Source: Schmidtea polychroa (lineage: Eukaryota). Taken from it: DNA of 64,000 nt. The notes under the pieces were generated by a model. It saw only the letters and a program-made list of their open reading frames with translations, ran no database searches and had not been told where the DNA came from. Below are positions 99-52,535 of the stretch, one piece after another. The stretch lies in assembly GCA_044892525.1 (NCBI GenBank), contig CM097885.1:11410001-11474000 (forward strand), read 5' to 3'. Positions within the stretch are counted from its first letter, which is position 1. Each line of letters begins with the position of its first letter. The position numbers and the translations under genes were made by a program.

Positions 99-536
99 TT
101 AGAAATCGACCAATGAAATTATCTCATTTCGAACATTGTCAACAAATTCTCTATACTCCAAATTTCTCAACCCCAGCATGACAACCTTTCCACTAGCAAA
201 CACGTTGACACATATAGGGTTATATTTTAATAGTCTTAGTGCCGGAAACAATTCCGGTTCAAACATACAATCACATTTTTTCGACATGTTATATAGATTG
301 ATACTATGTCCCATATCCATAGTAACGGTAATTGATTGGATTTTAATATTATTTATTCGATATTGTAATTTATTAATATCCAAAGGTTTCTTACATCCCA
401 TGATTCTGCATTTACCAGTCTTGAAAAATATTATCGGATATTTCCCGCTTCTATCGATAATTTGCTGTGGTTTCCCTGGTGGGAACCTCATATTCGATAC
501 ATCAAAATTTCCTCGATAATTTATATTTGCTAACAT
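99..536 (-). CDS. TATA-box-binding-protein-like (TBP fold) protein, 145 aa
   Basis: Two TBP repeats: LANINY..IIFFKTGKCRIMGCK resembles LQNIVS..LIFSSGKMVCTGAK; KIQSITVTMD..FEPELFPAL..VNVFASGKVVMLG resembles KIQNMVGSCD..YEPELFPGL..LLIFVSGKVVLTG. Confidence 0.88.
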   Translation of the reverse strand: MLANINYRGNFDVSNMRFPPGKPQQIIDRSGKYPIIFFKTGKCRIMGCKKPLDINKLQYRINNIKIQSITVTMDMGHSINLYNMSKKCDCMFEPELFPALRLLKYNPICVNVFASGKVVMLGLRNLEYREFVDNVRNEIISLVDF

Positions 537-635
537 TATTAAATCATTTATGAAAATTAGTCTTTATATACAAATTGAGCACGAGTTCATTAAATCATCG
601 AATATAAACAAATACACATTTATAAAATCTTTGAA

Positions 636-13933: not shown

Positions 13934-13970
<37 letters not shown>

Positions 13971-14335
13971 GTAGGGTAATGTGTGGACCCGGGAACAAAG
14001 ACATATGACGTCATCGATGACGTCACAAAGACATATGAGTCATACCCCCGGGGGAGGGGTTTTTTTTTTTAAATTTTTTTTTAAAATTTTTTTTTTTAAA
14101 TTTTTTTTAAAAAATTTTTTTTTAAAATTTATATTACGTTGCGGTATTTTAAAATATATATTACGTTGCGGTATTTTAAAATTTATATTACGTTGCGGTA
14201 TTTTAAAATTTATTATATTTTAATTATTAAATATATTACGTTGCGGTATTTTAAAAACTTATTGATAAAAGTTTAATAAAATAAAATTATTATTACACAC
14301 ACACAATATAGTCTACCCGACAAAATATTCTGTTC

Positions 14336-14816
14336 ATCATTCTATAAAGAACAAATATTTGGTGACAGAAGAATGCCTAATTTTATTCTGGTAACATTTC
14401 AAAGTGAAACACAATATAATGGATCTTATACTGCTTCCAGCTCAATTTTCAAAAATTTTGGTGTTACTTCATTGACTTTGTCGAAAAGTACTGATTATAG
14501 AGAAACATATACTCAAGATTTCGAAAGCGATAATTACTGTGCGACATATATGCAGAGTATTGTTAGAAATCTGGGTTACTTAGATAAAAACTTGAATTGT
14601 GGAATAACTCTAGAAGAATTTAAAAGCAAATACCCATTTTTTACATTTGTTTTAGCCCCTGATTTTGATTTAAATCAGATTCAACTACCACAAAACGGGA
14701 ATTTACGACTGGATATTAAGTTTGCAAAAGCTATTACTGAACCGGTACATGTTATAATATATGGAGTATTTGAAAATGAAGTTCAAATTACTGCAAATAG
14801 AACCGTGCTAGTATAA
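14336..14816 (+). pseudogene. 3' fragment of major capsid gene fused to the left TIR
   Basis: Near-identical to 10763-11244; begins immediately after the TIR. Confidence 0.92.
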
Positions 14817-14843
14817 ATGTATACAGAAACACAAAAAGTTGTC

Positions 14844-15228
14844 ATGGAGTAAGTTTTTTGATACTGTTTAATTTTATTAAAGTAGTTCTGTTCAGGTTAA
14901 TCGAATTGGAAAACAAATATTAGGAAATGAATTTGTAGGAGTTTTTCCTCTTGATAAAATTCCTTATTTGAGCAATAATCAAGCAATAATCGTCAATACT
15001 CAATCGTCTCATCTTGGTGGAGAACATTGGATAGCTATATATGTGAAACCTGGTAATATATTCGTGTTCGATCCTATGGGTTTCTATTATCCTGCTTTGT
15101 TGATATCAAAACTTCAAACAATTGGGAAACCTATTGTATATAATAAAACTATGTTTCAAAATCCATTGACTCAAACATGTGGTCAACACTGTTTGGCATG
15201 GTTGTTGTATAAAAAATTTGATGGTTAA
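14844..15228 (+). CDS. Adenain protease, second copy; exons 14844-14848 and 14886-15228
   Basis: Near-identical protein to copy 1; 37-nt GT-AG intron at the same position. Confidence 0.88.
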
Positions 15229-15274
15229 TAAATGTATGATTTTTATTTGTTGACTATTTTAATTATTTGTTAAA

Positions 15275-15341
<67 letters not shown>

Positions 15342-15696
15342 ATTATTAATATTATTATTTTGAAAAAATATTATTATTTTTAATTAATTTTATTATTCAA
15401 ATAAATATTATTAATTCTACATAAAGACTACCTATGCCTGAAGCATGCACAGTGCAAGTTAACAAAGGCATGACTAACAAAGGCAGTCACATGTAATTTC
15501 TGAGTGATTTACATTACATGCATGCATGCGTGTGATTGGTTGAGAGATGAAAATTTCAAGTTACTATGCGTATGTGTCTAATTCTGATTGGCTGGGACAT
15601 GAAATTTTTCATTCTCTTTATAAACATTGACAAATCTAAAATTTGTCACAATTATTTTAAAATTTTAAAAATCTATTAATAATAATATTTAACAAC

Positions 15697-16004
15697 ATGA
15701 ACAACAATATTCAAAGAGTTGACGGAAAGATCGTTGGAGGAATTAATGGTAAATTTATTATTTTATTATTTTATTATTTTTAATATGATTATTAGGTACT
15801 AATCAACAAATGAATATCGACGGACAAGCTGTAGACATGAATAGAATAAATGGTAATAGTTTACTATTATAATCATTATTATTTTATTATGCTTTTAGAT
15901 GGAATAAATACTTCTGCTGGTTCTGATGCTGGAAAATTTCTTTCGAAAGGACGAAAATGTAAGTATTTATTTATTGTTATAAGTTTTTAAGTTTTTTAAA
16001 CAAT

Positions 16005-16058
<54 letters not shown>

Positions 16059-16609
16059 TAAAAGAAGAAACTTATGAAAAGAAGATTTTTTCATGAAAAG
16101 AAGATATTTTAAAAGAAGATTTATTTATGAAAAGAAGATTTATTCATGAAAAGAAGATTTACCTATTTATTTATTTATGAAAAGAAGATTTACTTATTTA
16201 TTTATGATTATTTATTTATGAAAATGAATTAAATTATATATATTTTATAATATTTTTTATAAGATACTATTTAAAAGATAATTTTGAATAATATCTTACG
16301 AAAAATATCTTAAACTTTAAAAATGATTATTATCTTAATATTTTTTAAACATTTTATGATAAAAATATTTTCATAGGTTTGAAATACCAAAACTTTTGTA
16401 ATAGTCAATATCATAATGACTGCGATGATATAATGGAAAGATATTATAGTCATAAATATAACGGTGTCACCTACATCCTATGCCCTAAATGTGAGGTTAT
16501 TGAAGTTATAACGTATAAGGAATTTTATAATAAGCATAGACTCCATCTCCAACAATTTAAACCTTCTAAGAAGTCTCTTTTCTATAGCTTATATGAATCG
16601 TTTGTTAAC

Positions 16610-16658
<49 letters not shown>

Positions 16659-19600
16659 TCAACAACAACAATAATAATAATATCAACAACAATAATAATA
16701 ATAATAATATCAACAATAATAATAATAATAATATCACCAACAATAATACTAACAGCACCAATAATAATAATAATGATATAAACGAAATAAATAATCTAAA
16801 AGATCAAGTAAATAAATTAAATGAACAAATAAATAATCTAATTAATATGAATAAAAGAAAAAATAATGAAAAAATAAATTCAATACCAAGTAAAAAATCT
16901 AAAGTTATTGATGTAATCACAATAAGTGATGATGATGATGAAATAATCAACATAAGTGATGATGAAATTGATAATAATAATAATAATAATAATAGTAGTA
17001 GTAGTAATATTTATTATAATAATTGTATTAATAATACTAATCAAATAGGTTATGGTGTCGTAGATGTCACCAGTGATTTAAATAATAATCATATTATATT
17101 AAAAATGGACGTTTCGTCTTTAGATTTAAAAACGGTCTCTGTACCAGAAATTTTAATAAATAAATTAAATTTATATGTAAATAAATTAAAATCATGTAAA
17201 ATTCAATTTTGTCTAAAGGTGGAATTTATAAAAGATGATGAGTTACAATCTTTTGTAATCTCGAATTCCGCCCGAGTTTGGAGCGATACATTCATTGACG
17301 AAGGTATTGCTCGTTTAAATGAAAAAATAATTAAAATTAATGAGAAAGGTAGTAATTGGACTATCAATAAAATAGAATACATAAGCTTTGTTCTTACTAA
17401 ATTTGCTGAAATAAGTCGATTAAGTGGTAGAAGTTTTATTGAAACCCCAAAATCTTTAAGAAACTTAAGCTGTCTCATTAATGTAGTTAATAATGACCAC
17501 TTCTGCTTTTTGTATAGTTTCTTGTCAATTATTAAATATGACTGTATAAATAGGCAATATAGAAATCGCCCTAATTCCTACAATCTTTCTGAAATTAAAT
17601 TTGATCCTAATGATATGCCGATGAAACTATCAAATATAAGTAAATTTGAACAACAAAATCCGGGTTATAGTATTAATGTTCTTACTTATAACGAAAAGGC
17701 TTTGATTGACATTTCCGATGAAGATGCAGTTATGAAACATCCCTTTATTGATATAATATATAGGAGTAAGATAGTAGGAGCCATACCTATCAATTTATTA
17801 TTAATCGAAAAGAATGATAATTATCATTATCTTGGAAATTCCAAGTTGGAATCACAGACCTAAATAGATTTCTTAATTGTAGGAATAGTTCAATCACTCC
17901 TGTTAGGATTTGTAGTCAGTGGTGCCCTAGATGTTTAAACGGTTTTAGGAATGATGACGCTTTTAATAGACATAAGGGTCTTTGCGATAAAAATCAGCTT
18001 GGTACTACCTTGTACACATTGCCTAAAAATAAATATTTAGAATTTACTGATTGGAGTAAAACAGTTACTCCTCTCTTTGTTATTTACGCTGACTTTGAGG
18101 CTATCTTACTAAAGACACTCGCTACTTTCAACGTCATCTGCCTATTTCTGCCGTTATGCTTTTTATTAATAATTTCACAGGCGTAAAAATTTATAAGTCG
18201 TTCACCGGTTTAGATTGTGTCGATCAATTTCTTACTGAAATTGAAATGATAGGGAAATATATTGTAACTCCTTATTATTATAAAAATTATCAAAAGAAAA
18301 TGATAATTACAGATGAGCAACAATTAATGTTTGAAAACAGCACATCATGTTATTTGTGCAATAAGCCTTTAGTTAGTCCAGTTAGGGACCATGATCATTT
18401 TAGCGGTCTATATCTTGGTGCCGCTTGTACAACTTGTAATCTGTCGAGGCAAATTAGACATACCCTTCATGTAGTATTTCATAATTTAAAGGGTTATGAT
18501 CTGCATCATATCTTGAAATTTGGCCTTTCAAAATATCATTCATGGAATATTAGTTGTATTCCTTTAACCAGCGAGAAATTCCTTAGTCTTTTTGCTAGGA
18601 TTGACTCATTAACTGTTAAATTTATAGACTCTTATCAATTTGTCAGCGAGTCTTTAAATAATGCTGTCAAAACTTTATCATCTTTACCCTTGACCGAATC
18701 AGAATTTCAGGGTACAATAATAACTGCAAAGGGAATTTTTCCTTATGATGTCGCAACTTCATTAGAGGTTTTACATAACACTCATCAGTTACCACCTATT
18801 TGGAAAGATGTGACTCCTGCTAAATATGAGACAGCTCAGCGAATTTGGGTTGAAACTTCATGTACTTCACTTTTCGATTACATGATGGTTTATTTAAAAC
18901 TTGATGTTTTCCTTTTAGCCGATTTTTTCCAGCAATTTAGAGCTAAGTCCATTGCTCATAACCGACTAGAGCCATTAAATTTCTTAGGGATTCCAGGTAT
19001 GTCTTGGAATTCAGCCTTATTAACTTTAAACTCTCCAATTGAGCTCCTCACCGATATGGAGATGTATAACTTTTTCGAGGGCGGTATCCGTGGCGGACTA
19101 ACTTTTTGTAAATAAACATTATGTAAAAACAGACCCGGATACCGCTTTGCTTTACATAAATATAAATAATTTATACGGTTGGGCTTTAAGTCAACCATTA
19201 CCTTGCAGTGACTTTGAATGGGTTACTGATGATAATTTATTAAATAATATAATTGTTGAATGCACAACGGTAGATTTAGATCTGCTTGATTATGGTTATA
19301 CCATAGAAGTGGATTTAGAAATACCGACGTCAATTCACGACAAACTGGACGATCTTCCCGTTGCCGCTGAAAAGATGTGTGTACCGGGTTCGAAAATAGA
19401 GAAGCTGTTGCTTACACATAGCCCCAAGAGGAACTACGTTCTTCATTGGAGGCTTCTACAAATATTTATTAAATTAGGTGTTAAAATATCAAAAACACAT
19501 AGAGCAATTAAATTTAAACAAGATAAAATTTTCAAAAATTATATTAACACAAATACGGCGTTACGAGCAGCGTCGACAAATAAACTCGATAAAAATTTTT

Positions 19601-20499
19601 ATAAATTATTAAACAACAGTCTTTACGGCAAGACTGTTGAAAATCTTAAAAAACGTATTAATTTACGTCTGTGTAATTCTTCACAGAGATTATTAACATT
19701 CTGTTCGAAACCAACTTTTCGTAAATCCACGAAAATCGATGATGACTTGATTTCGGTTTTATTGAGGAAGGACATAGTGTGTTTGAATAGACCTAGTTAC
19801 ATTGGTCAAACCGTACTTGATTTATCCAAACTCAGGATGTACCAGCTGCAGTATGAAGAGTTGCAAAAATATCGCGACGAATTCAACTGCGAAATTAATA
19901 TCGTTGCTGGAGACACAGATTCCTTCTTCTTGGAAATTAAACATTGTAGTCTTGACATTCTTTTACCTGCGATGATTAGAGATCAATTATTAGATACTTC
20001 GAATTATGACCCAAATCATCCTTTATATAGTAGGAACCTTGATTCTGTCATTGGCAAATTCAAAGATGAGAATAAAGGGTTATTATATAAAGATTGGGTG
20101 TTCTTGAGACCTAAATGTTACAGTTTGATGGGTGATGAGGAAAGTATGAAGGCTAAGGGGATAAGTATGAAAGATACTGGACTAACACATCAGTCGTATC
20201 TAGATTGTTATTTAAATGATAAAATATACACAGTCCCTCAGTTTAGAATAACGTCAAAAAATCACCAACTTTTTAGTATTAAAAATAATAAAAGAGCATT
20301 GACATGTAGAGATGATAAGCGAAATTGGGTGGATAAAAATCAAAGTTTGGCATATGGCCATTATAGGGGCGGTGACACCGATATATTTATAGATTCAACG
20401 GAAGCTATCTCAGCAGATGATACAGATGATTTCCATGATACAGATGATTTCCATGATCCAGCAGATGATAATTATTTTGGACATGATTATTTTCGATGA
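15697..20499 (+). pseudogene. pPolB of Maverick-2; exons 15697-15748, 15796-15852, 15899-15958, 16377-20499; frameshifted
   Basis: Phase-1 micro-exons splice in frame to CLKYQNFC; frameshifts near 17840, 18115 and 19105; motif A reads YININNLYG where copy 1 has YIDINNLYG. Confidence 0.9.
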
Positions 20500-20697
20500 T
20501 GTGTTTAAATTATTTAATAAATGTATTGATTTTATTGTCTTGATTATTTTTAACAGTAACTTTGTGAACAATTTTTATACATTGTAATAATAATAATAAT
20601 ATGTTAAAGTTTTGTTAGTTACCTTTATGACCTTTACCCAGTGTGTTAATAAATTTTAAAATTGAATTATTTTCATTTAAATATACTATTAAAAACA

Positions 20698-21461
20698 TTA
20701 ATTTTTATTCATATATCTACAGAAAATATACATTATAACAACTCCAGTTGTAAGTTTTATATAGTTTTTCATTTTTCTTTTGATTTCATCAGTTTCTTTA
20801 AAATTGCAGGCCAGTTTATTTAATACACCCCATCCGCCATTGGCTTCTATCCATGGGGTAAACTTGGAGTTGATTATCTAGAAATGAATATTATTAAAAT
20901 ATAGATTATAAAAGAAATCCTACTTCTAAAGACCAATGATAATAATGTTCTGAATCATGTTGACCTTTTGCAATGATTATCTTCATGTAGGTGAATCCTA
21001 CAATTATCCTTGTCCATTTCATGTCTTCATCGAAAAGACACTGAAATATTCTATTGAAGTAATACTTCTTGGTTTCCAGGGATTCCGTCTCCATCATCTG
21101 CTGATAATCGATATGTTCACCTTCAATGATTTGTTCGGTTCGATTGATCAGGAAATTGAGGCTGTCGACTATATTCGCGGTGACAATTCCGTTTAGAACA
21201 TTTTCCATAAAATTTGGTTGCGACATTTCTAAAATAATTTAAAATATAATGTTTTTATTTATACTAATACCATATGATTTTGATTGGTTGATAGACTATA
21301 AATGTAAAAGAAAGGTTTTGATTTGATACACCATAAAAACTATATTGCTAATTATTATAACGAGTGTGTGCTAACACAATACCTTAATTTTATAATATTC
21401 GACTATGTTTTTTGTTAACCATGATTTGTGATAGAAATTATATAATAATAATAATATCAAC

Positions 21462-21492
<31 letters not shown>

Positions 21493-21568
21493 TATGTTTT
21501 ATTACATTGTTTATTAATACTCTTGCGAGTTGTTGAGCGTGACCAGTACCCTTCTGAGCAGTACCCAT
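20698..21568 (-). CDS. Bcl-2-family protein, about 185 aa; exons 21568-21521, 21295-21271, 21228-20924, 20877-20698
   Basis: BH1-like LFDEDMKWTRIIVGFTY, BH2 WIEANGGW, C-terminal hydrophobic tail LTTGVVIMYIFC flanked by basic residues. All four exons join in frame; the first two exons are less certain. Confidence 0.85.
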
Positions 21569-22191
21569 AGGGGGACAGAATATTTTGTCGGATAGACTCG
21601 GAGTATATAGATTAATAATATATCAATGAGAACACTAACTTGTTGCGTGTGTGGACACTAATAATATTTTTATACATTGTGTGTGTGTGTGACCATAGGG
21701 GAACAGAATATTTTGTCGGGTAGACTATATTGTGTGTGTGTAATAATAATTTTATTTTATTAAACTTTTATCAATAAGTTTTTAAAATACCGCAACGTAA
21801 TATATTTAATAATTAAAATATAATAAATTTTAAAATACCGCAACGTAATATAAATTTTAAAATACCGCAACGTAATATATATTTTAAAATACCGCAACGT
21901 AATATAAATTTAAAAAAAAAATTTTAAAAAAATTAAAAAAAAAATAAATTAAAAAAAAAATTTAAAAAAAAATAAAAAAAAATACCCCCCCTCCCCGGGG
22001 GGTAGGGGGTATGACTCATATGTCTTTGTGACGTCATCGATGACGTCATATGTCTTTGTTCCCGGGTCCACACATTACCCTACTACTACTACTAATAATA
22101 ATAATAATAATATAATCTGACCCTTCTACTATAGTCTACAGTAAGCATGTAGCTATATAGTAGTCTGCAGTGAGCATGCAGCTACTTCTCT

Positions 22192-34284: not shown

Positions 34285-34895
34285 TTTTTTCAAGTATTCA
34301 AACACAAAACAATCAATTAAAAAATTTCCAAAATTCTCGAATTCCATTATAATTCCAAAATTCGAATATTGATAACTTTACAATTGACAACTTTTACACA
34401 GACGCGATAAAACCGAAATAATAGCAACGCGCACACTAACGCGACAAAAATTAAAAAAACCACAAATAATGCACACACAGACGCGAGCCCAAAATTACAC
34501 AGCCATTCACATGGAGAAGTTATTCCTCCACCTGACTGCTCTAAAAAAGTATTGAGATATTTGTAAATTGAATTTATATTATTCTAAGTTTGTTTTAATA
34601 TTATATATTTTAAATATCAAATAATTTTTTAAATAATTTTGCTAAATTTTAACGAAAATCATAAAAATTCCAAAAATTTAACAGAAAATTCAAATAATAT
34701 CGAGTAACCCATAGATACCAGAAAATAATTTTGAAAATATTTTAAAAATATAAGAAGATAATAAAAAATCTTCAAATTTTAAATAATTTCAACAAAAATA
34801 TTCAGAAACCAATAGAAAATTTTAAAATTTCAGAAAATTATATAAATATAAATTTTAAAAATTTAAATAAATACTCGAAAAATAATTTTAAACCA

Positions 34896-35612
34896 ATGAA
34901 AAAATTAGAAAATGTAAACAATCCAGAACCTAATTCAATTAATCTTACTAAAATAACAAACAAATCTGAACTACCTTCAATGATAAAAACCAAGAACCAA
35001 GATAAAATTTACCCCCTTACAGTTCGTCGTAATAGATCAAGGACGAAGTCGAAATCATATTCTCCCGAGCCCAAAAATAATTCATATAACAGAATTGATC
35101 ATAAATATCAATATAATGATAAACCTGAAAAGATGGGACCGGTGAAGAAAGAATTTGTGAATATGCGTCTAACTGGATTATTAGCCGAAGAAACTAATAT
35201 GTATAAAGGAGTTAAAATAGTATACAACGAACCGTCAGAAGCTGCTATTCCAACTGATAAATGGCGGTTGTATAGTTTTAAAGGAGATGAATCCTTGCCA
35301 ACGATTCACCTCCATCGCCAGAGTGCTTATTTGATTGGAAAACACAGGGGTATTTGCGAAATCCCAATGGATCATCCAAGCATCAGTAAACAACATGCTG
35401 TTATTCAGTTCAGACAAATAGATGCTGTAGTCAAACCGTATTTAATTGACTTGAAGTCGACTAACGGCTCGTTTATAAGCGGAATAAAAATTGAGGCACA
35501 GAAATATTATGAACTAAGAGAACAAGATGTTTTGAAATTCGGATTTTCAACTCGAGAGTACGTTTTACTAACAGACAAATCACTCGCCTCTGACGACGAA
35601 GAGGATTCTTGA
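34896..35612 (+). CDS. SNIP1: SNIP1/Pml1 FHA-domain protein
   Basis: GLLAEETN, YNEPSEA..P...WRLY, HRQSAYLIG, DHPSISKQHAVIQFR, STNG, LKFGFSTREYVLL. Confidence 0.9.
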   Translation: MKKLENVNNPEPNSINLTKITNKSELPSMIKTKNQDKIYPLTVRRNRSRTKSKSYSPEPKNNSYNRIDHKYQYNDKPEKMGPVKKEFVNMRLTGLLAEETNMYKGVKIVYNEPSEAAIPTDKWRLYSFKGDESLPTIHLHRQSAYLIGKHRGICEIPMDHPSISKQHAVIQFRQIDAVVKPYLIDLKSTNGSFISGIKIEAQKYYELREQDVLKFGFSTREYVLLTDKSLASDDEEDS

Positions 35613-38698: not shown

Positions 38699-41273
38699 CA
38701 AGGGTGGGCACGCATGAGTTCAATGAGAGACATTTTCCGAAAATTTATTTTTTAAAGAGCCACCATAGTGAACTACATATTTTTTTTATTTCATTAATTT
38801 GATTAAAAAAGACTTAAACGCTATTAAAAACAATTATTTCAAAATTTAAGTAAGAAACATAAAATATAATAAAAATCCATTAATAAAAAGTAATAAAATT
38901 TCTTGAATTAACGAAGACTTTTGGTCAAATCTTTGAAATTTGGTGTATACTTTGTTAAAGCTGTTCGCAGCAATTCTGTAAGATGCTGATTGGTCAACTG
39001 TGAACGATATTTTGACTTCACGAACTTCATTGTGGAGTACAAAGATTCACAACAATATGTTGTACCAAAAATTGAAATTAGACGGCAAGCAGCTTGTTTT
39101 AAGTGTGGATATTTTGCCTCTGGTACGAGTTTCCAAAATTCAATTATAGAAGTAACTTTATGGTGCATTTGCAAAGCCTGGTCCTCTTTCATATCTAATA
39201 ACTCCAATTCCCCAACCGCTTTTTTAACAAGTATTACTTCAGAAATTGGAAATCCATCTTCAATAATATCACAAATAAATTGGTTCACAAAAAATGCAAA
39301 TGTAGATTTAAAACTTTTCAAATCTTCAAACCTACATTTGAAATCCGCTTGCAATTCTTCCAATTTTTCACTGTATTCGTTTACTTTTTCTTCTGTGATA
39401 TCAATTTTATTAGCTTTTATTCGTGGAAAATGATTAAATATTTTCGACCTAAGATCGTTCACAAAAAGCCGAAGTTTAGCTTCAAAACTAAATAACGTTT
39501 GTGACAAATCAATAATTATCTTTTCTTTTCCTTGTAAAGCCAAATTTAATATTTGCAAATGTTCCATAATGTCTGTAAGGAACATTAAGTCAGAAAGCCA
39601 AGTTTCATTTTCTAATTCTGGGTATGCTATTCCTTTTTCTTTGGTAAATATTATGATAGGATTTAGGAGTTCCACAAAACGGTCCAAAACATTGTAAGTT
39701 GACAGCCATCTAACAATACACCATAAGGAGACATCATTGGGCAATTCATCTGTTTCATCATTTAATCTTAATTCTTCTAAAAAGTTTTTAAATTGACGAT
39801 GTGTTTTGGCATTTGTTCTAATTAAATTCACAATCTTCAAAACAATCTTCCACACATTTTCGTATTTAAAGTACTTCGCTATGAGATGCTCGCGATGAAT
39901 TATGCATTGAAGAGATAAGAAATGAGGAATATTTGGATCTCTGTTTAAAAGACCAATGAGACCTTGATTTTTCCCCATCATTGCAGGCGCTCCGTCTGTC
40001 GCAACACTTACAAGTTTATCACGCGCCAATTCAAACTTGTCCATCACTACATCAAGCGCAGTTTTGACATCGATACCGCGAGTTGTTTCTTTAAGAGCTA
40101 CTAGGTCTAAAATTTCTTCCTTTACTTTTACGTCAGAAGATACAAAGCGGACAAAAACGGCTAATTGTGGAACATCCTGAATGTCAGTAGACTCGTCGAG
40201 AGCTAAACTGAATGCTGTACAATTTTTTAAATCACACATCAAATTATTTTCAACATTTTCGCTAATTTGGCCAATTCGACGCGCAGTTGTACGACGTGAC
40301 ATAGGAATACGTGAGATCAATTTATGTAGTTTTGAGTTATCCGGATCCAAAACTTTAATCACTTCTTCCAAGTTTCTCTTAATAAATTCACCTTCTCCAT
40401 ATGTACGTTTAGCACGAGCTATATTCCAAGCTATCAAAAAACTAGCTTCATTGGCACTGTCATCTTCTCGACTAAAAGAAAACATTAGTCCTTGTTGGTT
40501 TTGAAGCCCTGATTGCAATGACTTAAGTTTTTCTGTTCGCAATTTTGAATTGAGTGGATATTGAATTGATAAGTGTGGATGACTTACTTCATAGTGTCGA
40601 CGTAAATTGGTTACTTTGTAGTTGGAAATTGTAACTTTACAAATAAGACACAACGATTTACCATTATTGTCAATAAAAAAAAACTTTTCTGTCCATTCTT
40701 CTTGAAAAGTTCTATTTTCTTGTTTGTATTTTCGTTTTTTGATGTTTTCTGAGGTCATTGTAATAATAAATTTGAATAACTTATATTACTGAAATTTAAA
40801 CAAAATAATAAAAAGACATAAATTTAATTTTAATTAATTTAAAATTTTAAAATGCTTCATAAAAAATCTTCTTACCAAATTTTTCAAAAAACACGAATAG
40901 AAAACTATACTAAAATATACAAACGACCGCAATATTGTACAAACAAAAATATTAACTAATCAAAATTCACTAAATTTCACTAAATTTATTTTCATTGCTT
41001 CTCTCTCGTTGTTATAACAAAGCGCCGCCTACTACAAAATAATTTTAAAAAGCAGTAAAATGTGAAAAACAATGTTTCGTTAATTTTTAACATTTATGAA
41101 AATACAATTGCAACAAAAAATTTTTTTTTAAAAATTCAGTTGAAAAAATTTCAAAATAAAAAAATCGAATTCAATTTTCAAATTCAATTATCAAAAATTC
41201 AATTATCAATGAGCCGCAGTTTACTCAACGAAGAGCCGCATGCGGCTCTAAGAGCCGCCTTTGCCCACCGTTG
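38699..41273 (-). mobile_element. hAT transposon (SPIN/Charlie/GTF2IRD2-like) nested in the larger hAT
   Basis: TIRs CAAGGGTGGGCA / TGCCCACCGTTG; 8-bp TSD GTATAAAT. Confidence 0.95.
38908..40758 (-). CDS. Uninterrupted hAT transposase, 616 aa
   Basis: BED finger CLIC..RRHY...H, LDESTD, TDGAPAM, CIIH, RWLS, FGTTYCCESLYS. Confidence 0.95.
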   Translation of the reverse strand: MTSENIKKRKYKQENRTFQEEWTEKFFFIDNNGKSLCLICKVTISNYKVTNLRRHYEVSHPHLSIQYPLNSKLRTEKLKSLQSGLQNQQGLMFSFSREDDSANEASFLIAWNIARAKRTYGEGEFIKRNLEEVIKVLDPDNSKLHKLISRIPMSRRTTARRIGQISENVENNLMCDLKNCTAFSLALDESTDIQDVPQLAVFVRFVSSDVKVKEEILDLVALKETTRGIDVKTALDVVMDKFELARDKLVSVATDGAPAMMGKNQGLIGLLNRDPNIPHFLSLQCIIHREHLIAKYFKYENVWKIVLKIVNLIRTNAKTHRQFKNFLEELRLNDETDELPNDVSLWCIVRWLSTYNVLDRFVELLNPIIIFTKEKGIAYPELENETWLSDLMFLTDIMEHLQILNLALQGKEKIIIDLSQTLFSFEAKLRLFVNDLRSKIFNHFPRIKANKIDITEEKVNEYSEKLEELQADFKCRFEDLKSFKSTFAFFVNQFICDIIEDGFPISEVILVKKAVGELELLDMKEDQALQMHHKVTSIIEFWKLVPEAKYPHLKQAACRLISIFGTTYCCESLYSTMKFVKSKYRSQLTNQHLTELLRTALTKYTPNFKDLTKSLR

Positions 41274-41819
41274 GTATAAATGGTTTAACAAAAAAATAAA
41301 AATATTATATAATAAGATATTTATTAAAATTGATGTGTATTCCCGTTATGAAATTCAATATATTTAAATTAATTTATAAATATTTAAATTAAATACCCTT
41401 TAGAGTTCGTAAGTACTCTTTGAGAGATTTTCCATAAAATAGGACAATCGAACCGACTTTGCTATGCAGAAATTTTCATCGAAATAGGTTAAAAAAGTAA
41501 AATTTAATTATTTTATTGTACTTTAGAATCTGTTATTTTATTAGCTCTAGAATCTAAAGTATCAAGTCAAACATATTTTAGCAAATAATATTGTAATCAA
41601 TTAGTGGAAGTAGAATTATATGTTTATGTTGCTAAACAATTATGTTTGTCTTTTAAGTTAATACTATTGACGCCCTTGAAGAAAGTGCAATTTTGCAGTT
41701 TGAAAATTTATAATTCTCCATTTTCTACATTACGAAGTGGTAAGTTGATTATGCCGAATTATAATAACCATTTTTTAGTTTATTATTTAAGTTTTAATAC
41801 TTTTTTAATCCATTCCAAG

Positions 41820-44428
41820 ATGAAAAGAATGAGAGATAGCGGCGCTGCTTTTAGAAAAAAGAAAAAGACGAAGGAAGAAGAAAAAGAAAAAAGTAAAGGA
41901 GCACTGATTAAATACTTCAATCGTGAACAAGCAAGTAATACAGCGCGTGAAGGATCTAATATTGCTGCACCTGAAGTACATCCTGTATCTGAAGAAATTA
42001 TTATTACTGCGCCAAGTTCAAGTTCTTCTGAATACTTCAATCGTGAACAAACAAGTAATACTGCACGTTAAGGATCTAATATTGCTGCACCTGAAGTACA
42101 TCCTGTATCTGAAGAAATTAATATTACTGCGCCAAGTTCAAGTTCTTCAACTACGAGCGATGAAGTGTCTGCATTTCCTACTGCTAACTTAAAAGACGCT
42201 GGTCTATGGCCGAGCAAAATTAGTGATCACACAAGAATCTTACTAGTACGCCAAGGTGCGTCTGTGATTCAACACCTAGATTCAGATTTCGGTGAAACCA
42301 TTCGTCAAGGTTTATCAATTAAAGGACGGAACAGAAAACTCACTCGCGATTGGTTTTTCCAAACTCTGCCAAATGGCGAAAAAAATGTTACGGTCTTGGT
42401 TAATATATTCGCCTTACAAGAAAGTTCTCTACTGCTTTTGCTGCAGAATATTTCCAGCTGAAAAAGGTTCACATTTTAATTCTTTAGATAGATTTAATGC
42501 TTGGTGGAAACTTAATCCTAGGCTACTCGAATATGAATCCAGTGTGACACACGTTCAAAAATTCATGCAATGGAAGGAGTTGGAAATAAGAATTAGTTGC
42601 GGAGCAACGATTGATTAAATAGAGCAGGAAGCTGTTGAAAATGAAGCGAAGAAGTGGAGACAAATCCTATCAAGATTGTTAGATGTAATTAAATTCTCAG
42701 CGAGACAGAATTTATCTTTACGAGGTCATCGAGAAGAAGATAAGTTTGAATCAATATATAATAATAATAATAATAGAGGAAATTTTTTAGAATTAGTAGA
42801 TTTGTTGTCAAAATATGATCCAGTGCTGAGAGAACATATTCTTAGAGTCAAGCTGGGAAATAAATTCGCCTTATCTTATATGTCACCTACGATTCAAAAC
42901 GAATTTATAGAAATTTTGGGAAATAAAGTAAGAAGCAAAGTTTTAGAACAAGTTAAACAAGCCAAATACTATTCTATAATATTCGACAGCACTCCTGACA
43001 TTTCTCATATAGATCAGACGAGCCAGGTTTTGCATTATGTATTGATTGATGGAGATAAAGTAAAGATAATGGAATCATTTGTTGATTTTATTGAAACGAA
43101 AAGTAAAACCGCCGAGAACATTTCGATAATGATTTTGAAGAAATTAGAAAATGACGGACTTGATATTCAAAATTGTAGAGGACAAGCTTATGACAATGCT
43201 GCTGTGATGGCTGGAAAATGTACTAGTGTTCAAAAACGTATAAAACAAATTAATAGAAAAGCAGAGTTTGTTACATGTACCAATCATACCCTGAATTTGT
43301 CCGGTCTACACGCAGCTTCAGTGGCTATCAATTCGGTAACTTTTTTTGGAGTTTTGGATCGCCTTTACGTATTTTATTCTTCCTTTACTCATCGATGGGA
43401 CATTCTGACATCGGCGACTTCTCAAAGTCTCCAACGCGTAGTAGAAACTCGATGGAGTGCAAGGGCTAAAGCTGTGAGTGTCTTAAAAATTAATTTCTCA
43501 AACATTTTAAATTCTTTGGAAGATTTGACTAGCGAAGAAGAAAACACATGCACATACACAAGCTGGTGTACTACTTGGTGCGTTGCAATCATTTTCATTT
43601 TTGTGTTTCCTCGGTCTAAGGGAATCAGTTCTGGTAAAAATTAATGAAACACAGAATTACCTCCAAACTAAAGGGATAAATATACAAAATTGTGATATAA
43701 AACTTAAGGCTTTAAAGTCATTTTTAATAGATAATAGGAATAAGCTAGTGGAAAATTCAATAATATATGCCAAGGAAATATGTTCTGATTTAGGAATTAT
43801 CATGGAGCGTCAGCGTCGGTGCAAAAAGAAAAAAAGAATGTTTGATGAAGGATCCAATGATGCTGAATTGCCGTATGAAACTGAATTGCGAAGAGAAATG
43901 TATTCTTCTCTAGACAGGGTTATTCAAGAAATAAATACGAGATTTCAACAGATTCATGTTCTTGGTGAAAAATATGGATTTCTTGCCCCATCTAATCTTT
44001 TAAACGAGGATTATAATTGTCAGATAAGTGATGATCATGACGATATTAATAAGGAAGAATTCTTTATTGAAAGAAAAAGATTAATAAGTTTCGTCGCTGC
44101 CGCAGCTATGCGAGACGAAACAGATATATTGAAAGAAAGCCCCTTTGAGCTTTTACAGTTCATTCAAAAATATAATCTTGGAAATTCCGTACCCAATATT
44201 GTCATTTTACTACGAATTTTCCTGACAATTGCTGTAAGTGTGGCTAGCTGTGAGAGAAGTTTTTCAAAATTAAAATTAATTAAGAATTACTTAAGATCTT
44301 CTATGCACAGTTTACGGTTGAGAAATCTTGCCATATTATCAATAGAACATCAATTAACGGAGGAAGCAGACTTCGATGATGTTATTGATGACTTTGATAG
44401 ACGAAAAGCAAGAAGAGTAATTATGTAG
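41820..44428 (+). pseudogene. Disrupted ZMYM1-like hAT transposase
   Basis: YCFCC, LRGHRE, DSTPDISH, RGQAYDNAA, TRW, SVASCERSFSKLKLIK across stops and frameshifts; 120-bp tandem duplication near the 5' end. Confidence 0.92.
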
Positions 44429-47221: not shown

Positions 47222-48688
47222 CAGGGTTTTAAGTTGTATTTTGACAAGCATAATATATTTTTTGACAATATTAACCAGATAATAAACAATATTAAATCTA
47301 TTATTGACAATATATGCTAAATTAATAACAATAAAAGCTTTATTAATGACATTATAAATATATTTTTAGACATTCTATGCATGGCTCGACAAATAAGTCA
47401 ATTTCCTGCTTCCATAGCAAATAATACAGAAATAGTAGTCGAAAGTGATAACACTGCCGAACCAGCTATCCGTAACACTTTTCGAGTACAACGAAGAAAT
47501 AGTACAACTTCAAATGCTGATAGAGATCGTGTTATTACAGCATACGATGACGGGACTTCAATAGTTGATATTTCTCGAATTTTATCAATAAAAAGAACTA
47601 CAATTTATGGTATTTTGAAGAAGTACGATAACACTGGAGTGGTGGAAGCTGATAAGAGAGGCGGCGATCATCCACAAAAATTGACAGAGGATCAAAAAAA
47701 TCAAGTAAAAGAGTGGGTTGATAATAACTGCTAATTATCGTTGAAAGTTTTAGCGGAAAAGGTATTTACAGAGTTTCAAATTAGAATATCCACAACTTAT
47801 GTATATAATTTATTATCTCGTTTTCATTATTCAATGAAAAGACTTCATTTAATTCCAGAGAGAAGAAATTCAACAGAAGTAATTGAAACAAGAAAAGAAT
47901 ATGCACTTAAATTCTCTTCTATACTAAGTATATATTCAGAACAAGAATTAATATTTATTGATGAGGTGGGATTCAACGTTTCTATGAGAACAACAAGAGG
48001 AAGATCACAAATAGGCACTCCTGCAACATTAAATGTACCGACCATACGATCAAGAAATATATCTATAGCATGTGCAATGAACAAAAATGGGTTATTGTTT
48101 TATAAATCTTTTAATCGGGCCCTCAATAAAGAGAAGTTTATCGAATATATAACAGAGCTAAAGGAAGTTTTAATTGATAAAGAGATTCACAGATGCGTAT
48201 TCATAATGGATAATGTTAAGTTCCATAAAAGTCCTGAAGTGCTTAGCGCTATAAATAATGAAAATACAACTGTAAAATTTCTTCCGCCGTACTCCCCTTT
48301 TCTCAATCCTATTGAGAACATGTTCAGCAAATGGAAGGAAATCACCAAAAGAACCAACCCCAGAAATGAAGATGATCTTATGCGAGCAATTTAAAATGGA
48401 AGTACCCTAATATCTTCACAAGACTGTAGTAATTATGTGCGAAATATGTGGTCATATATACCAAGATGTATTGAGGGAGAAATTATTCTTAATTAAATGT
48501 CACTTAATTTTTTTGTCATTACATTTTTTGTAATATATTACATTAATATATGTATTATTGTCATTAATATTATTTAAATTGGCATTTATTTTATTAATAT
48601 TGTCATTAATGTATTTAACATTGTCAAAGATTATATTAAAATATTCAAAAAATATGTTATGTTTGTCATAATACGACTTGAAACCCTG
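47222..48688 (+). mobile_element. Tc1/IS630-type DD34E transposon; transposase 47381-48496 with two premature stops
   Basis: TA-flanked TIRs CAGGGTTTTAAGTTGTATT / AATACGACTTGAAACCCTG; FIDE, MDN-34 aa-E (YSPFLNPIE); TAA at 47732 and 48392. Confidence 0.93.
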
Positions 48689-49656: not shown

Positions 49657-51171
49657 TCATTTGAAGATATTCACATCATCAAACAACTCATTGTTGATCG
49701 GGGTAACATAATTAAAATACGGACAGTCCAAGTGCTCGGTGTACTTTTCTTTCGTGAAAGATTTTGCTATAACTGAAAGCGAGATGTGATTGTTGAGAGA
49801 ATACATTTTTTTATTCGACGGAATTTTCACCGGTGGTTGATACTCATACATTTTGAACAAGTTAAACCTTTTAAATAAAGGCAAACTCTGAGGTAGCCAT
49901 TTATGATTCGTATTATTCATACAGTCGTGTAAACGAGTGTTTTCGTCGCTTATCAAACTGAAAAATACCGTGATTAGTTCTGGAAACCTTTTGCAACGCT
50001 GTTTCAAAATTGACTTTTGCATGAAACTTTTTGTTTTCCAATTCGATATGAAGTCTGACAATTCTTTAACTTTATCCGAAACGATATGTTTGTATGGTCG
50101 GCATCCAAATAGCAAATGGAAAAATATTACACCTACCGCCCAATAGTCACCTTTATCATCGTAGACGTTTTTTTCTTCTTTTATATATTCAGGTGCCGCA
50201 TAATATCGATTGCCCCACATTCTTCGAGGAGAATATAAGTATGGCTCCAATAGGTGAGAAGACGAACAGCTTGAAGAGAAAGAACACTCTCCTTCGAGTT
50301 CTGTACTCGAACATTTTCGCTTTGCCAATCCAAAATCTATTAACTTCAAATGACCAGAACAAGTGAGTAAAATGTTATTTTCCTTTAAATCTCTATGCAA
50401 TACACCTTGCTCATGCATGTACTTTAGAGCTCCCAACAGTTCAGCGATATAGAACTGTACAATTTCAAATTGACGTTGCGTCAGAAATGGGATATCTATG
50501 ACCATCTTTTCATCAGTAATGCCAGATACCAACAGAGGATAAAGATCAGCTCCATTGTCTATTTTGATAAGTTTCTTCAAATAAGTTATCGTTTCACCGT
50601 CTATAAATTCTTGAACAAAAATTGCTGCCAGTTGACGTTCAATAAAACACGCATAAAGTTTCGGTGTCCACCTCCCGGATAGTCTAATCAAGCTGTCGCG
50701 TTCATTAATCAACTGTGAGTAATGATTCTGAATGTCATCACCTTTTCGGGCGCCTATCATTTTGATTAAACAGATTTTTATCTTCTTCTTGTTTTCATCT
50801 TCCAAACTATATCTCAAAGAAGCTATAAATCCTTTTCCAAAACTTCCTTGACCAATTAACTTATGATAATTAAATTGTTTCCAGGATAATAAAGAAGGCA
50901 TTTTAATCTGTACAGGGAGATTTGTGTTAGGTGCTTGGTTAAGGTTCATTGAGAAATGCCAGGCCAGATATTCTCTGTTGTACATCATGCACTCGGAAAA
51001 GAGAAAATAATCCTTTAACTTTATTATGTACTTATCCCTAACCTGAGCAGGAATTCTGTGCTCATTTACTTCTTCATTTTGACAGAAATTCAGTTTTTGT
51101 TTGTTTTTATGTGATGTTTTGAACGATCTTTTCGGTTTTAGGTAATTTTTCTTATTCATATTCTTTTTCAT
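49657..51171 (-). CDS. Divergent AGC-group Ser/Thr protein kinase, intronless, 504 aa
   Basis: GQGSFG, HRDLKENN, DFG, APE, DYWAVG, QFYIAEL. Confidence 0.9.
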   Translation of the reverse strand: MKKNMNKKNYLKPKRSFKTSHKNKQKLNFCQNEEVNEHRIPAQVRDKYIIKLKDYFLFSECMMYNREYLAWHFSMNLNQAPNTNLPVQIKMPSLLSWKQFNYHKLIGQGSFGKGFIASLRYSLEDENKKKIKICLIKMIGARKGDDIQNHYSQLINERDSLIRLSGRWTPKLYACFIERQLAAIFVQEFIDGETITYLKKLIKIDNGADLYPLLVSGITDEKMVIDIPFLTQRQFEIVQFYIAELLGALKYMHEQGVLHRDLKENNILLTCSGHLKLIDFGLAKRKCSSTELEGECSFSSSCSSSHLLEPYLYSPRRMWGNRYYAAPEYIKEEKNVYDDKGDYWAVGVIFFHLLFGCRPYKHIVSDKVKELSDFISNWKTKSFMQKSILKQRCKRFPELITVFFSLISDENTRLHDCMNNTNHKWLPQSLPLFKRFNLFKMYEYQPPVKIPSNKKMYSLNNHISLSVIAKSFTKEKYTEHLDCPYFNYVTPINNELFDDVNIFK

Positions 51172-52535
51172 GTTGTTTTAAAACAAGCATTTTTATAATA
51201 TTTATTGACGATTTATAAAGTAAATCAATAATAATTTCATACGAGGATAGAGGCACACGAGACAGCCATAATGGCCATTAACACCTTCACTACCTACCTT
51301 TCGAAGGCCCTGGTCTCCCATAGACTGATGTCATATTTTGCAAAATATTGTACCAAAATTCTTCCTATCTTATATCTTCAATGTTTATCTGTTTTCATTT
51401 TAAATGTTTTATTTTGGGGCATTACTTTCTTTAATTGAATTAAAAAAACTTTCCGACCATAATCTAAGTTTATTCAATCGCAGCAATGATATACTACAAA
51501 ATATGTCTTGTTTGTTATTTGAAGTCGTTCATTGTCGGGGGCGCCGCGTCTCTTTGGACGTTATTTTCGACTCTGCTCGGTTGGTTCTGAGTCCCCCGTG
51601 TATCGCCGTTGAAGCGTGGTTATTTCTTGTTATTTAAGGGTGCATTGGGCATCCCCATCAGTATTTTCAACGTGGCCGGCCTGGATGTTCTGTTTCACTT
51701 GGTGAAGGCGCGCGATTGCGCGGTTCACCTCCATGATGGCTTGAAGGCGGGTTAGGGTTAGGGCCGGCTTCAGAGTTTTCACTTCGTTTTTTTGTATTTA
51801 GCATTTCTAAATAATGTCAGTGAAGCTTTCATTGCTTTGTTTTCTATAGATTTTTATCTAGGTGAGTCTAATTCAGAGGAGTCCTTACACCTCATCCAGT
51901 CTTACTCAGCCATACTTACACATCTATAAACATGCGCACATACATTCAAAAATACCTTATTTTAATCCCTAACGTTCAGGTAGGTACAAGCTATTGGGTA
52001 CCTCGAGAGAACAGTGAATGAATGATACCCAGATCCATTGAAAAAATTGAAATCATAACTAGATACTTACTTATGCAATACATGTGGCGCAAAAGGGATT
52101 CTATATCTGTAACTGTTATTAGACCTATTTATTTCCAAAATTAATTACAAATTTCCTAGGATTCGCTTATTTAAAATCACATCAAAAAATTTCCAATTAA
52201 TAATTATTCCAAAAAAATTCGTTTGTTTAAATCCTGGTAAATTTCTCCAACATCAACATTTATTTTTTGAAATTATAATTAACTAAATTTTTAAGAAGCT
52301 TAATTTAATATTTTTTCTTTAGAGAATTTATTATTTACCCTAAGGGAGGACTCGGTCAGCAGTGATTTACTAGTTACATTTTTGGTCCTAATACTTTCCC
52401 GCTGCCATAGTTACTTGCCACGGTTTACTGATCCTTGTAATTTTTAAAATTATACCATTTGTACTTTCAGGGTTTCAGGTAAACGAACGTTCGAGGAGAA
52501 TTTGAACCCAAATGCGTCGTGGAATTTATTCGGAT

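Follow-up and report, generated by a model that had tools for sequence, protein, structure and literature searches.

The closest described systems are the adintoviruses or animal Mavericks, in which passages of PMC8502044 report Bcl2 and IAP homologs; a Bcl-2 cargo in adintoviruses is thus already known, as the first-pass annotation of this locus had stated. The element studied here resembles them in that a Bcl-2 homolog sits in an animal element with protein-primed DNA polymerase B (pPolB), integrase and capsid genes. It differs from what those passages describe, which is without such detail, in that the gene is spliced, sub-terminal, moving between element ends, and has a likely donor in the same genome. 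The portion of the PMC8502044 supplement that was searched yielded no Schmidtea or planarian entries, and a literature search, of incomplete coverage, turned up nothing published on a Bcl-2 gene in a flatworm Maverick or LTR element.

Two further groups invite comparison. The homologs E1B-19K, BHRF1 and A179L are, like the present protein, small and virus-borne, with a Bcl-2 fold that is predicted for the Maverick protein, and the virus-encoded homologs listed in passages of PMC7022251 are pro-survival; their function is proven, whereas that of the Maverick protein, a delay of cell death, is only predicted. E1B-19K also differs in that exon 1 of the Maverick gene has no match to its profile PF01691, and the tree points to a local host capture. 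Bcl-xL and A1, the best PDB matches, share with the Maverick protein the BH1 and BH2 motifs, the GGW and a C-terminal hydrophobic tail, but differ by NWGR becoming KWTR, by a degenerate BH3 in the Maverick protein and by an identity of only ~20%. What is new here is the test of two micro-exons, the tail evidence for mRNA capture, an end-to-end move that left a scar, and a Bcl-2-like domain in an LTR polyprotein.

The window, a stretch of 64,000 nucleotides of Schmidtea polychroa, contains one Maverick inserted in another:

~-10,925 (~10.9 kb before the window) to 32850: outer Maverick, host of the inner one, with target-site duplication CTTCGC
13970..22084: inner Maverick, internally deleted (after 14335), with a capsid 3' piece, protease, pPolB pieces and the Bcl-2 gene
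13970-14335: left repeat remnant of the inner Maverick
16349..20499, plus strand: pPolB (PF03175), split over three reading frames, its 3' end facing that of the Bcl-2 gene
21440..22084: right terminal inverted repeat of ~600-650 bp, ending in ...CCCTACT

In sister copies there are genes for ATPase, integrase, capsid proteins, protease, pPolB and a TBP, while the window copy is without the left part. The Maverick/Polinton gene set, namely pPolB, integrase, packaging ATPase, capsid genes and adenain-type protease, is thus found in these sister copies, the capsid genes being labelled by position and size, with no Pfam match. The terminal inverted repeats start with AGT, and matching 6-bp duplications flank 6 of 8 copies that are paired (Bcl-2 gene at both ends) and 8 of 10 that are unpaired; the duplication of the inner Maverick is ambiguous because it lies in a microsatellite. 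Elsewhere in the window, segments 34746-35612, 38908-44428, 47321-48394 and 49657-51177 hold an FHA-domain gene, two hAT transposases, a DDE_3 transposase and a protein kinase frame.

Structure, splicing and conservation of the gene

The Bcl-2-family gene at 21226-20698 is real. It lies on the minus strand, where two coding exons, 21226-20924 and 20877-20698, encode a protein of 160 amino acids:

20924..21226, minus strand: coding exon 1, 101 codons, from the ATG at 21226 through the BH1 region to ...HWSLE
21016-21008, minus strand: BH1 motif KWTR, within exon 1
20878..20923, minus strand: GT-AG intron, phase 0, 46 nt (GTAGGA...TTCTAG), not at the family's usual GGW position
20698..20877, minus strand: coding exon 2, 59 codons and TAA (20700-20698), with BH2 WIEANGGW and the tail
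~20760-20710, minus strand: predicted tail anchor, a hydrophobic stretch in exon 2 followed by basic residues

Exon 2 starts with IINSKFTPWIEANGGW. The first-pass annotation had proposed a 46-nt intron, 20923-20878, between the BH1 exon and one that carries WIEANGGW and a hydrophobic tail, and had suggested looking for RNA junctions across it: the sequence agrees, and contigs skip the intron. The joint 20877>20924, with CT..AC ends, is found in two of the four runs compared, X1 and X2, in one contig per run, with a short side of 30 letters in X1 and 39 in X2; it is not found in the DNA-like run X3, of which 26,185 contigs were placed. Runs X1 and X2 come from one study, and their status as RNA is a guess of the tool used. 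Run X7, of another study, has no cover over the Bcl-2 gene. GT-AG introns of host genes are spliced in X1, X2 and X7 and not in X3, so that the first three behave as RNA.

The intron stands at the same codon in 52 of 55 tblastn rows of fetched loci, some of these rows being one copy counted twice; the other three are truncated or deleted. Its length is 46 nt in 36 of the 52 rows, 44 in 4, 45 in 5 and 48-60 in 7, and across four Maverick subfamilies its position is constant and its length varies from 44 to 60 nt. The window copy has the donor GTAGGA, against GTAAGA in 34 sibling rows, a difference at +4; splicing is therefore shown for the transcript of the family and is not tied to the window copy. 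Introns of a neighbouring host gene measure 40-45 nt.

Pfam profile PF00452, which the first-pass annotation had proposed to search with the spliced protein, matches exon 1 with E 8.6e-4, but the score of 20.3 bits is under the 31.4-bit cut-off; exon 2 alone has no Pfam match. The same profile gives up to 34.5 bits for sister copies read through in-frame introns, and 32.5 bits for an intronless Maverick homolog treated below. An HMM built only from seven host paralogs, the donor candidate left out, assigns 27.1 bits to the two-exon reading, 15.4 and 10.0 to the single exons, and at most 9.0 to 300 shuffles. Searches of the PDB place Bcl-2-family chains first for each exon alone, without significance, and the family profile retrieves 134 sequences at E <=0.01, with Bcl-xL and Bax first (E ~1.5e-6). 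In the Atlas, the query P0001, which is 97% identical to the window protein, scores 0.93 to a PF00452 cluster; a second match has PF06227 on 11% of its members, and a lead to PF01691 (0.85) concerns 20% of members only. Neither exon matches PF01691, the E1B-19K profile, at E 0.1. Homolog searches gave 0 of 28 longer candidates, and the near homologs were only three unspliced gene calls of the same family. The structure model, made for the distant intronless homolog only, is all-helical with pLDDT 52.5; with this low-confidence model the top Foldseek rows are Bcl-2-family chains, at E 0.05 or weaker, and a viral fold search returns nothing at E 0.001.

The BH1 and BH2 motifs follow each other in the order and spacing of the family, and the alignment to the host paralog is gap-free across the splice junction. 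The reading of WTR in BH1 in place of WGR holds, and the glycine is also absent elsewhere: the motif is KWTR here, WSR in the host donor and WSK in the distant Maverick family. The 17-aa stretch of the tail has a moderate hydropathy of 1.29 in the window, within a range of 1.29-1.71 in four of four subfamilies, all with a basic end. The canonical BH3 core carries Gly-Asp; the position aligned to BH3 reads LINRTEQ, with no such core, which argues against a killer of the Bax/Bak type. Lack of that core, and grouping apart from the multi-exon host genes L033 and L035, both set the protein off from Bax/Bak-like effectors.

Between subfamilies, dN/dS is 0.07-0.21, with dS partly saturated; the window gene against four representatives of other subfamilies gives 0.21, 0.08, 0.09 and 0.18 (Fisher p 3e-9 or lower). 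Purifying selection is measurable only between subfamilies, and there are only 1-3 changes within the young subfamily. RNA contigs, intron position, profile matches and purifying selection together bear out the earlier claim of a spliced, tail-bearing Bcl-2 homolog in a Maverick.

The window's subfamily has at least 150 copies at >=96% identity (150 of 2,388 candidates scored), and the subfamily with a 44-nt intron also has at least 150 in the genome. The homolog is carried by at least four Maverick subfamilies and by a second, distant Maverick family; in other subfamilies several copies are frameshifted. The window gene differs from its close siblings at 2-5 of 529 nt, and the family is thus young. 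The first-pass annotation had also remarked that the Bcl-2 frame is intact while pPolB is broken. It is true that pPolB lies in three frames, but the contrast is expected by chance (P 0.71-0.79), given a young family and a 480-nt gene set against a 4.1-kb gene with 2-3 breaks.

One part of the first-pass annotation was not confirmed: two micro-exons upstream of the ATG, 21568-21521 (A) and 21295-21271 (B), that would add 25 amino acids. The region reads as follows:

21521..21568, minus strand: proposed micro-exon A, within the terminal inverted repeat, probably no exon
21281..21287, minus strand: CCAATCA box, a predicted promoter element, inside micro-exon B
21256..21263, minus strand: TATAAATA (TATA) box, predicted promoter, 37 nt before the ATG, overlapping an AATAAA

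The sequence of A is present at both ends, the gene-less end included, in 8 of 8 elements. That of B runs into a CCAAT box which all subfamilies retain, whereas the splice sites of B are not conserved. In the contigs of the runs compared, no RNA joint upstream of the ATG was found, and contigs from sister subfamilies span the upstream region unspliced, including the 42-nt gap between B and the ATG. The 25-aa N-terminal extension is therefore probably wrong. A longer form confined to the window's subfamily, which would be compatible with the main explanation below, strikes us as improbable. Within the 46-nt subfamily, 34 of 36 rows show all five of its signals, the 42-nt gap would suit a typical host intron (40-45 nt), and the AG before the ATG is kept in L071; but the subfamily is >=97% identical, so that conservation there means little, the form fits 0 of 17 rows of other subfamilies (4 of them mis-anchored by frameshifts), the contigs cross the gap unspliced, and the TATA box would fall inside the 42-nt intron. 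Trans-splicing at this AG was considered and rejected: the AG is not conserved in most subfamilies, and no loose contig end lies there.

All 7 terminal-type genes examined have CCAATCA at -60 to -69 and TATAAATA at -33 to -37; the CCAAT box recurs at -57 in the distant intronless family. From their conservation we infer that the two boxes are the promoter. One X2 contig, which belongs to a sister subfamily, stops at the start codon (21226) with a run of A and appears to be polyadenylated through the AATAAA that overlaps the TATA box; some upstream transcripts may thus end before the Bcl-2 gene. Such an early end may insulate or attenuate the gene. Every Maverick family examined has a gene for a short TBP-like protein (PF00352), and the Bcl-2 gene has a conserved TATA box; such frames lie at:

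window 99-563, minus strand: TBP-like frame
L047:5065-5550: TBP-like frame
L060:6894-7361: TBP-like frame

Host relatives and the probable capture of the gene

The closest host match to the window protein is a gene of contig G000:C1, L032/L078, with E 2e-16 against 4e-6 for the next paralog. It is single-copy, with flat single-copy cover in X3, and no Maverick genes lie within ~15 kb. Its two coding exons are split after GGW by an intron of 2,972 nt that is spliced in three of three RNA-like runs. The host protein and its relative P0004 share with the element's protein a BH1 without glycine (WSR and WTR), a 5-residue deletion common to host and Maverick proteins, a collinear tail and membership in one clade. 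They differ by an identity of 21-27%, by the element's intron of 44-60 nt, which stands 13 codons earlier than the host's, and by ~15 residues near the N-terminus that the element's protein is without.

The tail carries the argument for the route of capture. Host exon 2 (42 aa) aligns gap-free to the tails of four of four terminal-type proteins, each beating all 20,000 shuffles; it does not align to the distant Maverick or LTR proteins. The element thus combines sequence from the two host exons and is without the intron between them, which is what a processed mRNA would give; its own, new intron stands elsewhere. The likely donor is the single-copy gene L078/L032, probably captured as a processed copy. 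Since the donor's BH1 reads WSR, the missing glycine was probably inherited rather than newly lost in the element.

A distant Maverick family, with another gene order, has an intronless Bcl-2 homolog of 143 aa between TBP and pPolB:

L060-L061 (G000:C1:15.40 Mb and 247.54 Mb): distant Maverick family with the intronless homolog

This homolog is 45% identical to host L032/L078 and 22% to the window protein. The first-pass annotation had suggested a tree with the host Bcl-2 paralogs: L032/L078 and the Maverick genes group together at 93/94, and at 99/98 when 14 of 38 database matches are added, together with four unnamed proteins. One near-duplicate row was left out of the 99/98 tree, and the LTR domain discussed below out of later trees. 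The multi-exon host genes L033/L035 group apart from the Maverick genes, with weak deep support. Topologies that place these genes with host L021 (p 0.023) or host L028 (p 0.040) are rejected, and AU tests do not separate one capture from two (p 0.28). As the trees are unrooted, the direction from host to element rests on the intron evidence.

Three further observations concern relatives in the same genome. A many-copy LTR retroelement has a Bcl-2-like domain (PF00452, ~26-29 bits) in a gag-type frame of ~3,050 aa, directly before a Monjiviricetes-type fusion glycoprotein:

L076-L077 (G000:C1:113.81 Mb), L058, L070, L073 and dozens of further rows: LTR retroelement with Bcl-2-like domain

Of 15 sequences compared, this domain matches the intronless Maverick homolog best (E 2e-5), followed by host L032 (E 2e-4); in the tree it has a long branch, at 64/91. 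Locus L097 (G000:C1:2.24 Mb) is a decayed Bcl-2 relic, 44% identical; its intron stands at roughly the same place, and the 10 kb fetched there contain no Maverick core gene. Loci L021-L027 (G000:C4:89.9-90.8 Mb) form a tandem cluster of seven near-identical Bcl-2 genes of the NWGR type.

Position of the gene at the element ends

The first-pass annotation had noted that the outer Maverick has no Bcl-2 gene behind pPolB. For that position this holds, with none at the right end, but a 64%-identical paralog stands just inside the left repeat, ~2 kb before the window start. For the 44- and 48-nt subfamilies, six fetched copies place the gene in the left arm, upstream of TBP and ATPase (the right end was seen for one only). 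Wherever the window exon recurs without a mismatch, in 20 of 20 cases, the end of pPolB comes next. Eight fetched pairs have the gene at both element ends. Among ten unpaired copies, eight were followed to the far end: none of the eight has a second gene there, and all eight complete elements have a 95-nt remnant of the gene's last codons and 3' flank. Both samples are biased, having been picked as paired or as unpaired; among the 150 matches listed, there are 15 convergent neighbours within 35 kb. The eight hand-picked pairs had suggested that the gene belongs regularly to both terminal repeats; this is rejected, since none of the 8 complete unpaired elements carried a second one.

Elements with the gene on the left only, at both ends, and on the right only with a scar at the left end point to movement of the gene between ends. 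The simplest order, to judge from these arrangements, would lead from left only to both ends by extension of the inverted repeat, and then to loss of the left copy. Inverted duplications of 3-5 kb also copy pPolB ends or TBP/ATPase from end to end (L041-L044, L056-L057), and suggest frequent terminal template switching. In the 44- and 48-nt subfamilies, a further frame lies upstream of the Bcl-2 gene on the opposite strand; it is absent from the window's subfamily:

L064:8603-9106, L071, L075 and L053:7140-7560: coiled-coil-like frame of 168 aa

Proposed function of the protein

Our preferred explanation, to which we give a probability of about 0.6, is that the spliced 160-aa gene of this young, high-copy Maverick is a processed capture of a host paralog, and encodes a tail-anchored pro-survival decoy that delays host-cell death during replication and integration. 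The anti-apoptotic role is read from viral precedent, from the persistence of BH1, BH2 and the tail, from the way the donor gene is laid out and from the absence of a BH3 core. As to layout, passages of PMC8998228 describe the boundary after GGW as conserved and two coding exons as typical of pro-survival genes, and the donor's two coding exons, split after GGW, fit this pattern. The gene would be transcribed from the adjacent CCAAT and TATA promoter, possibly aided by the element's own TBP, and the predicted tail would insert into the mitochondrial or ER membrane. The protein would then bind a narrow set of host death proteins: threonine where most members have the BH1 glycine predicts a narrow or non-canonical binding, and passages of PMC8998228 report that, once this glycine is lost, a functional BH3 groove is unlikely in one placozoan protein, while in mouse Boo the selectivity changes. 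The replaced glycine also counts against the decoy reading, as do the moderate hydropathy of the tail, the single contig per run and single study behind the splice joint, the X2 contig that stops at the start codon and the poor structure model of the intronless homolog. Such a decoy would postpone the death of a cell that accumulates linear element DNA and breaks made by integrase. Its gene would have been captured through mRNA, would then have gained a new intron of host size, and, as the terminal repeat lengthened, would have reached the right end too before the left copy was lost.

The altered BH1 glycine also fits a Bcl-2-fold protein acting outside apoptosis, for example by blocking autophagy or innate signalling. 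Passages of PMC7022251 describe M11, E1B-19K and A179L as targeting autophagy, along with mechanisms that do not use the groove, and the second Atlas match has PF06227 on 11% of its members; we consider this reading unlikely, as BH1, BH2 and the membrane tail are all retained under purifying selection, and E1B-19K is described in the same source as a potent apoptosis inhibitor too. A probably narrowed groove, descent from a host paralog that may act for or against survival, and a very high gene dose, with two subfamilies of 150 or more near-identical copies each, could instead point to a dominant-negative or pro-death protein that titrates a host pro-survival partner, in order to release particles or remove cells. 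Hundreds of expressed killer copies would burden the host, however, and both the missing canonical BH3 core and the grouping away from L033/L035, weak as the deep support is, speak against it, so that we hold it for distinctly unlikely. Finally, the gene could be a functionless passenger near the terminal repeat: the 1-3 changes within the young subfamily are too few to measure selection, and frameshifted copies occur in other subfamilies. This reading is scarcely credible, being largely refuted by the dN/dS of 0.07-0.21 between subfamilies; in addition, splice sites and promoter boxes are conserved, the RNA is spliced, and one gene copy is retained in every end arrangement examined.

The decoy may be part of a wider pattern, which we offer as a tentative conjecture. 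A host paralog lacking the glycine would have been captured three separate times, by two Maverick families and by an envelope-bearing LTR retroelement within its 3,050-aa polyprotein, which would mark it as the survival switch of cells with active elements; one family would then have gained the intron and moved ends through repeat extension. For a planarian host, passages of PMC8532177 are relevant, according to which polintons and LTR elements escape silencing as cells differentiate normally and are kept in check by PIWI.

As a rule, viral Bcl-2 genes have diverged too far for their origin to be followed. Here, a likely donor, a processed intronless relative in another Maverick family, a gained intron and the steps from end to end stand in one genome, and make a capture by a virus-like element readable. 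If the protein does block death, hundreds of element copies would feed into the cell-death balance of their host.
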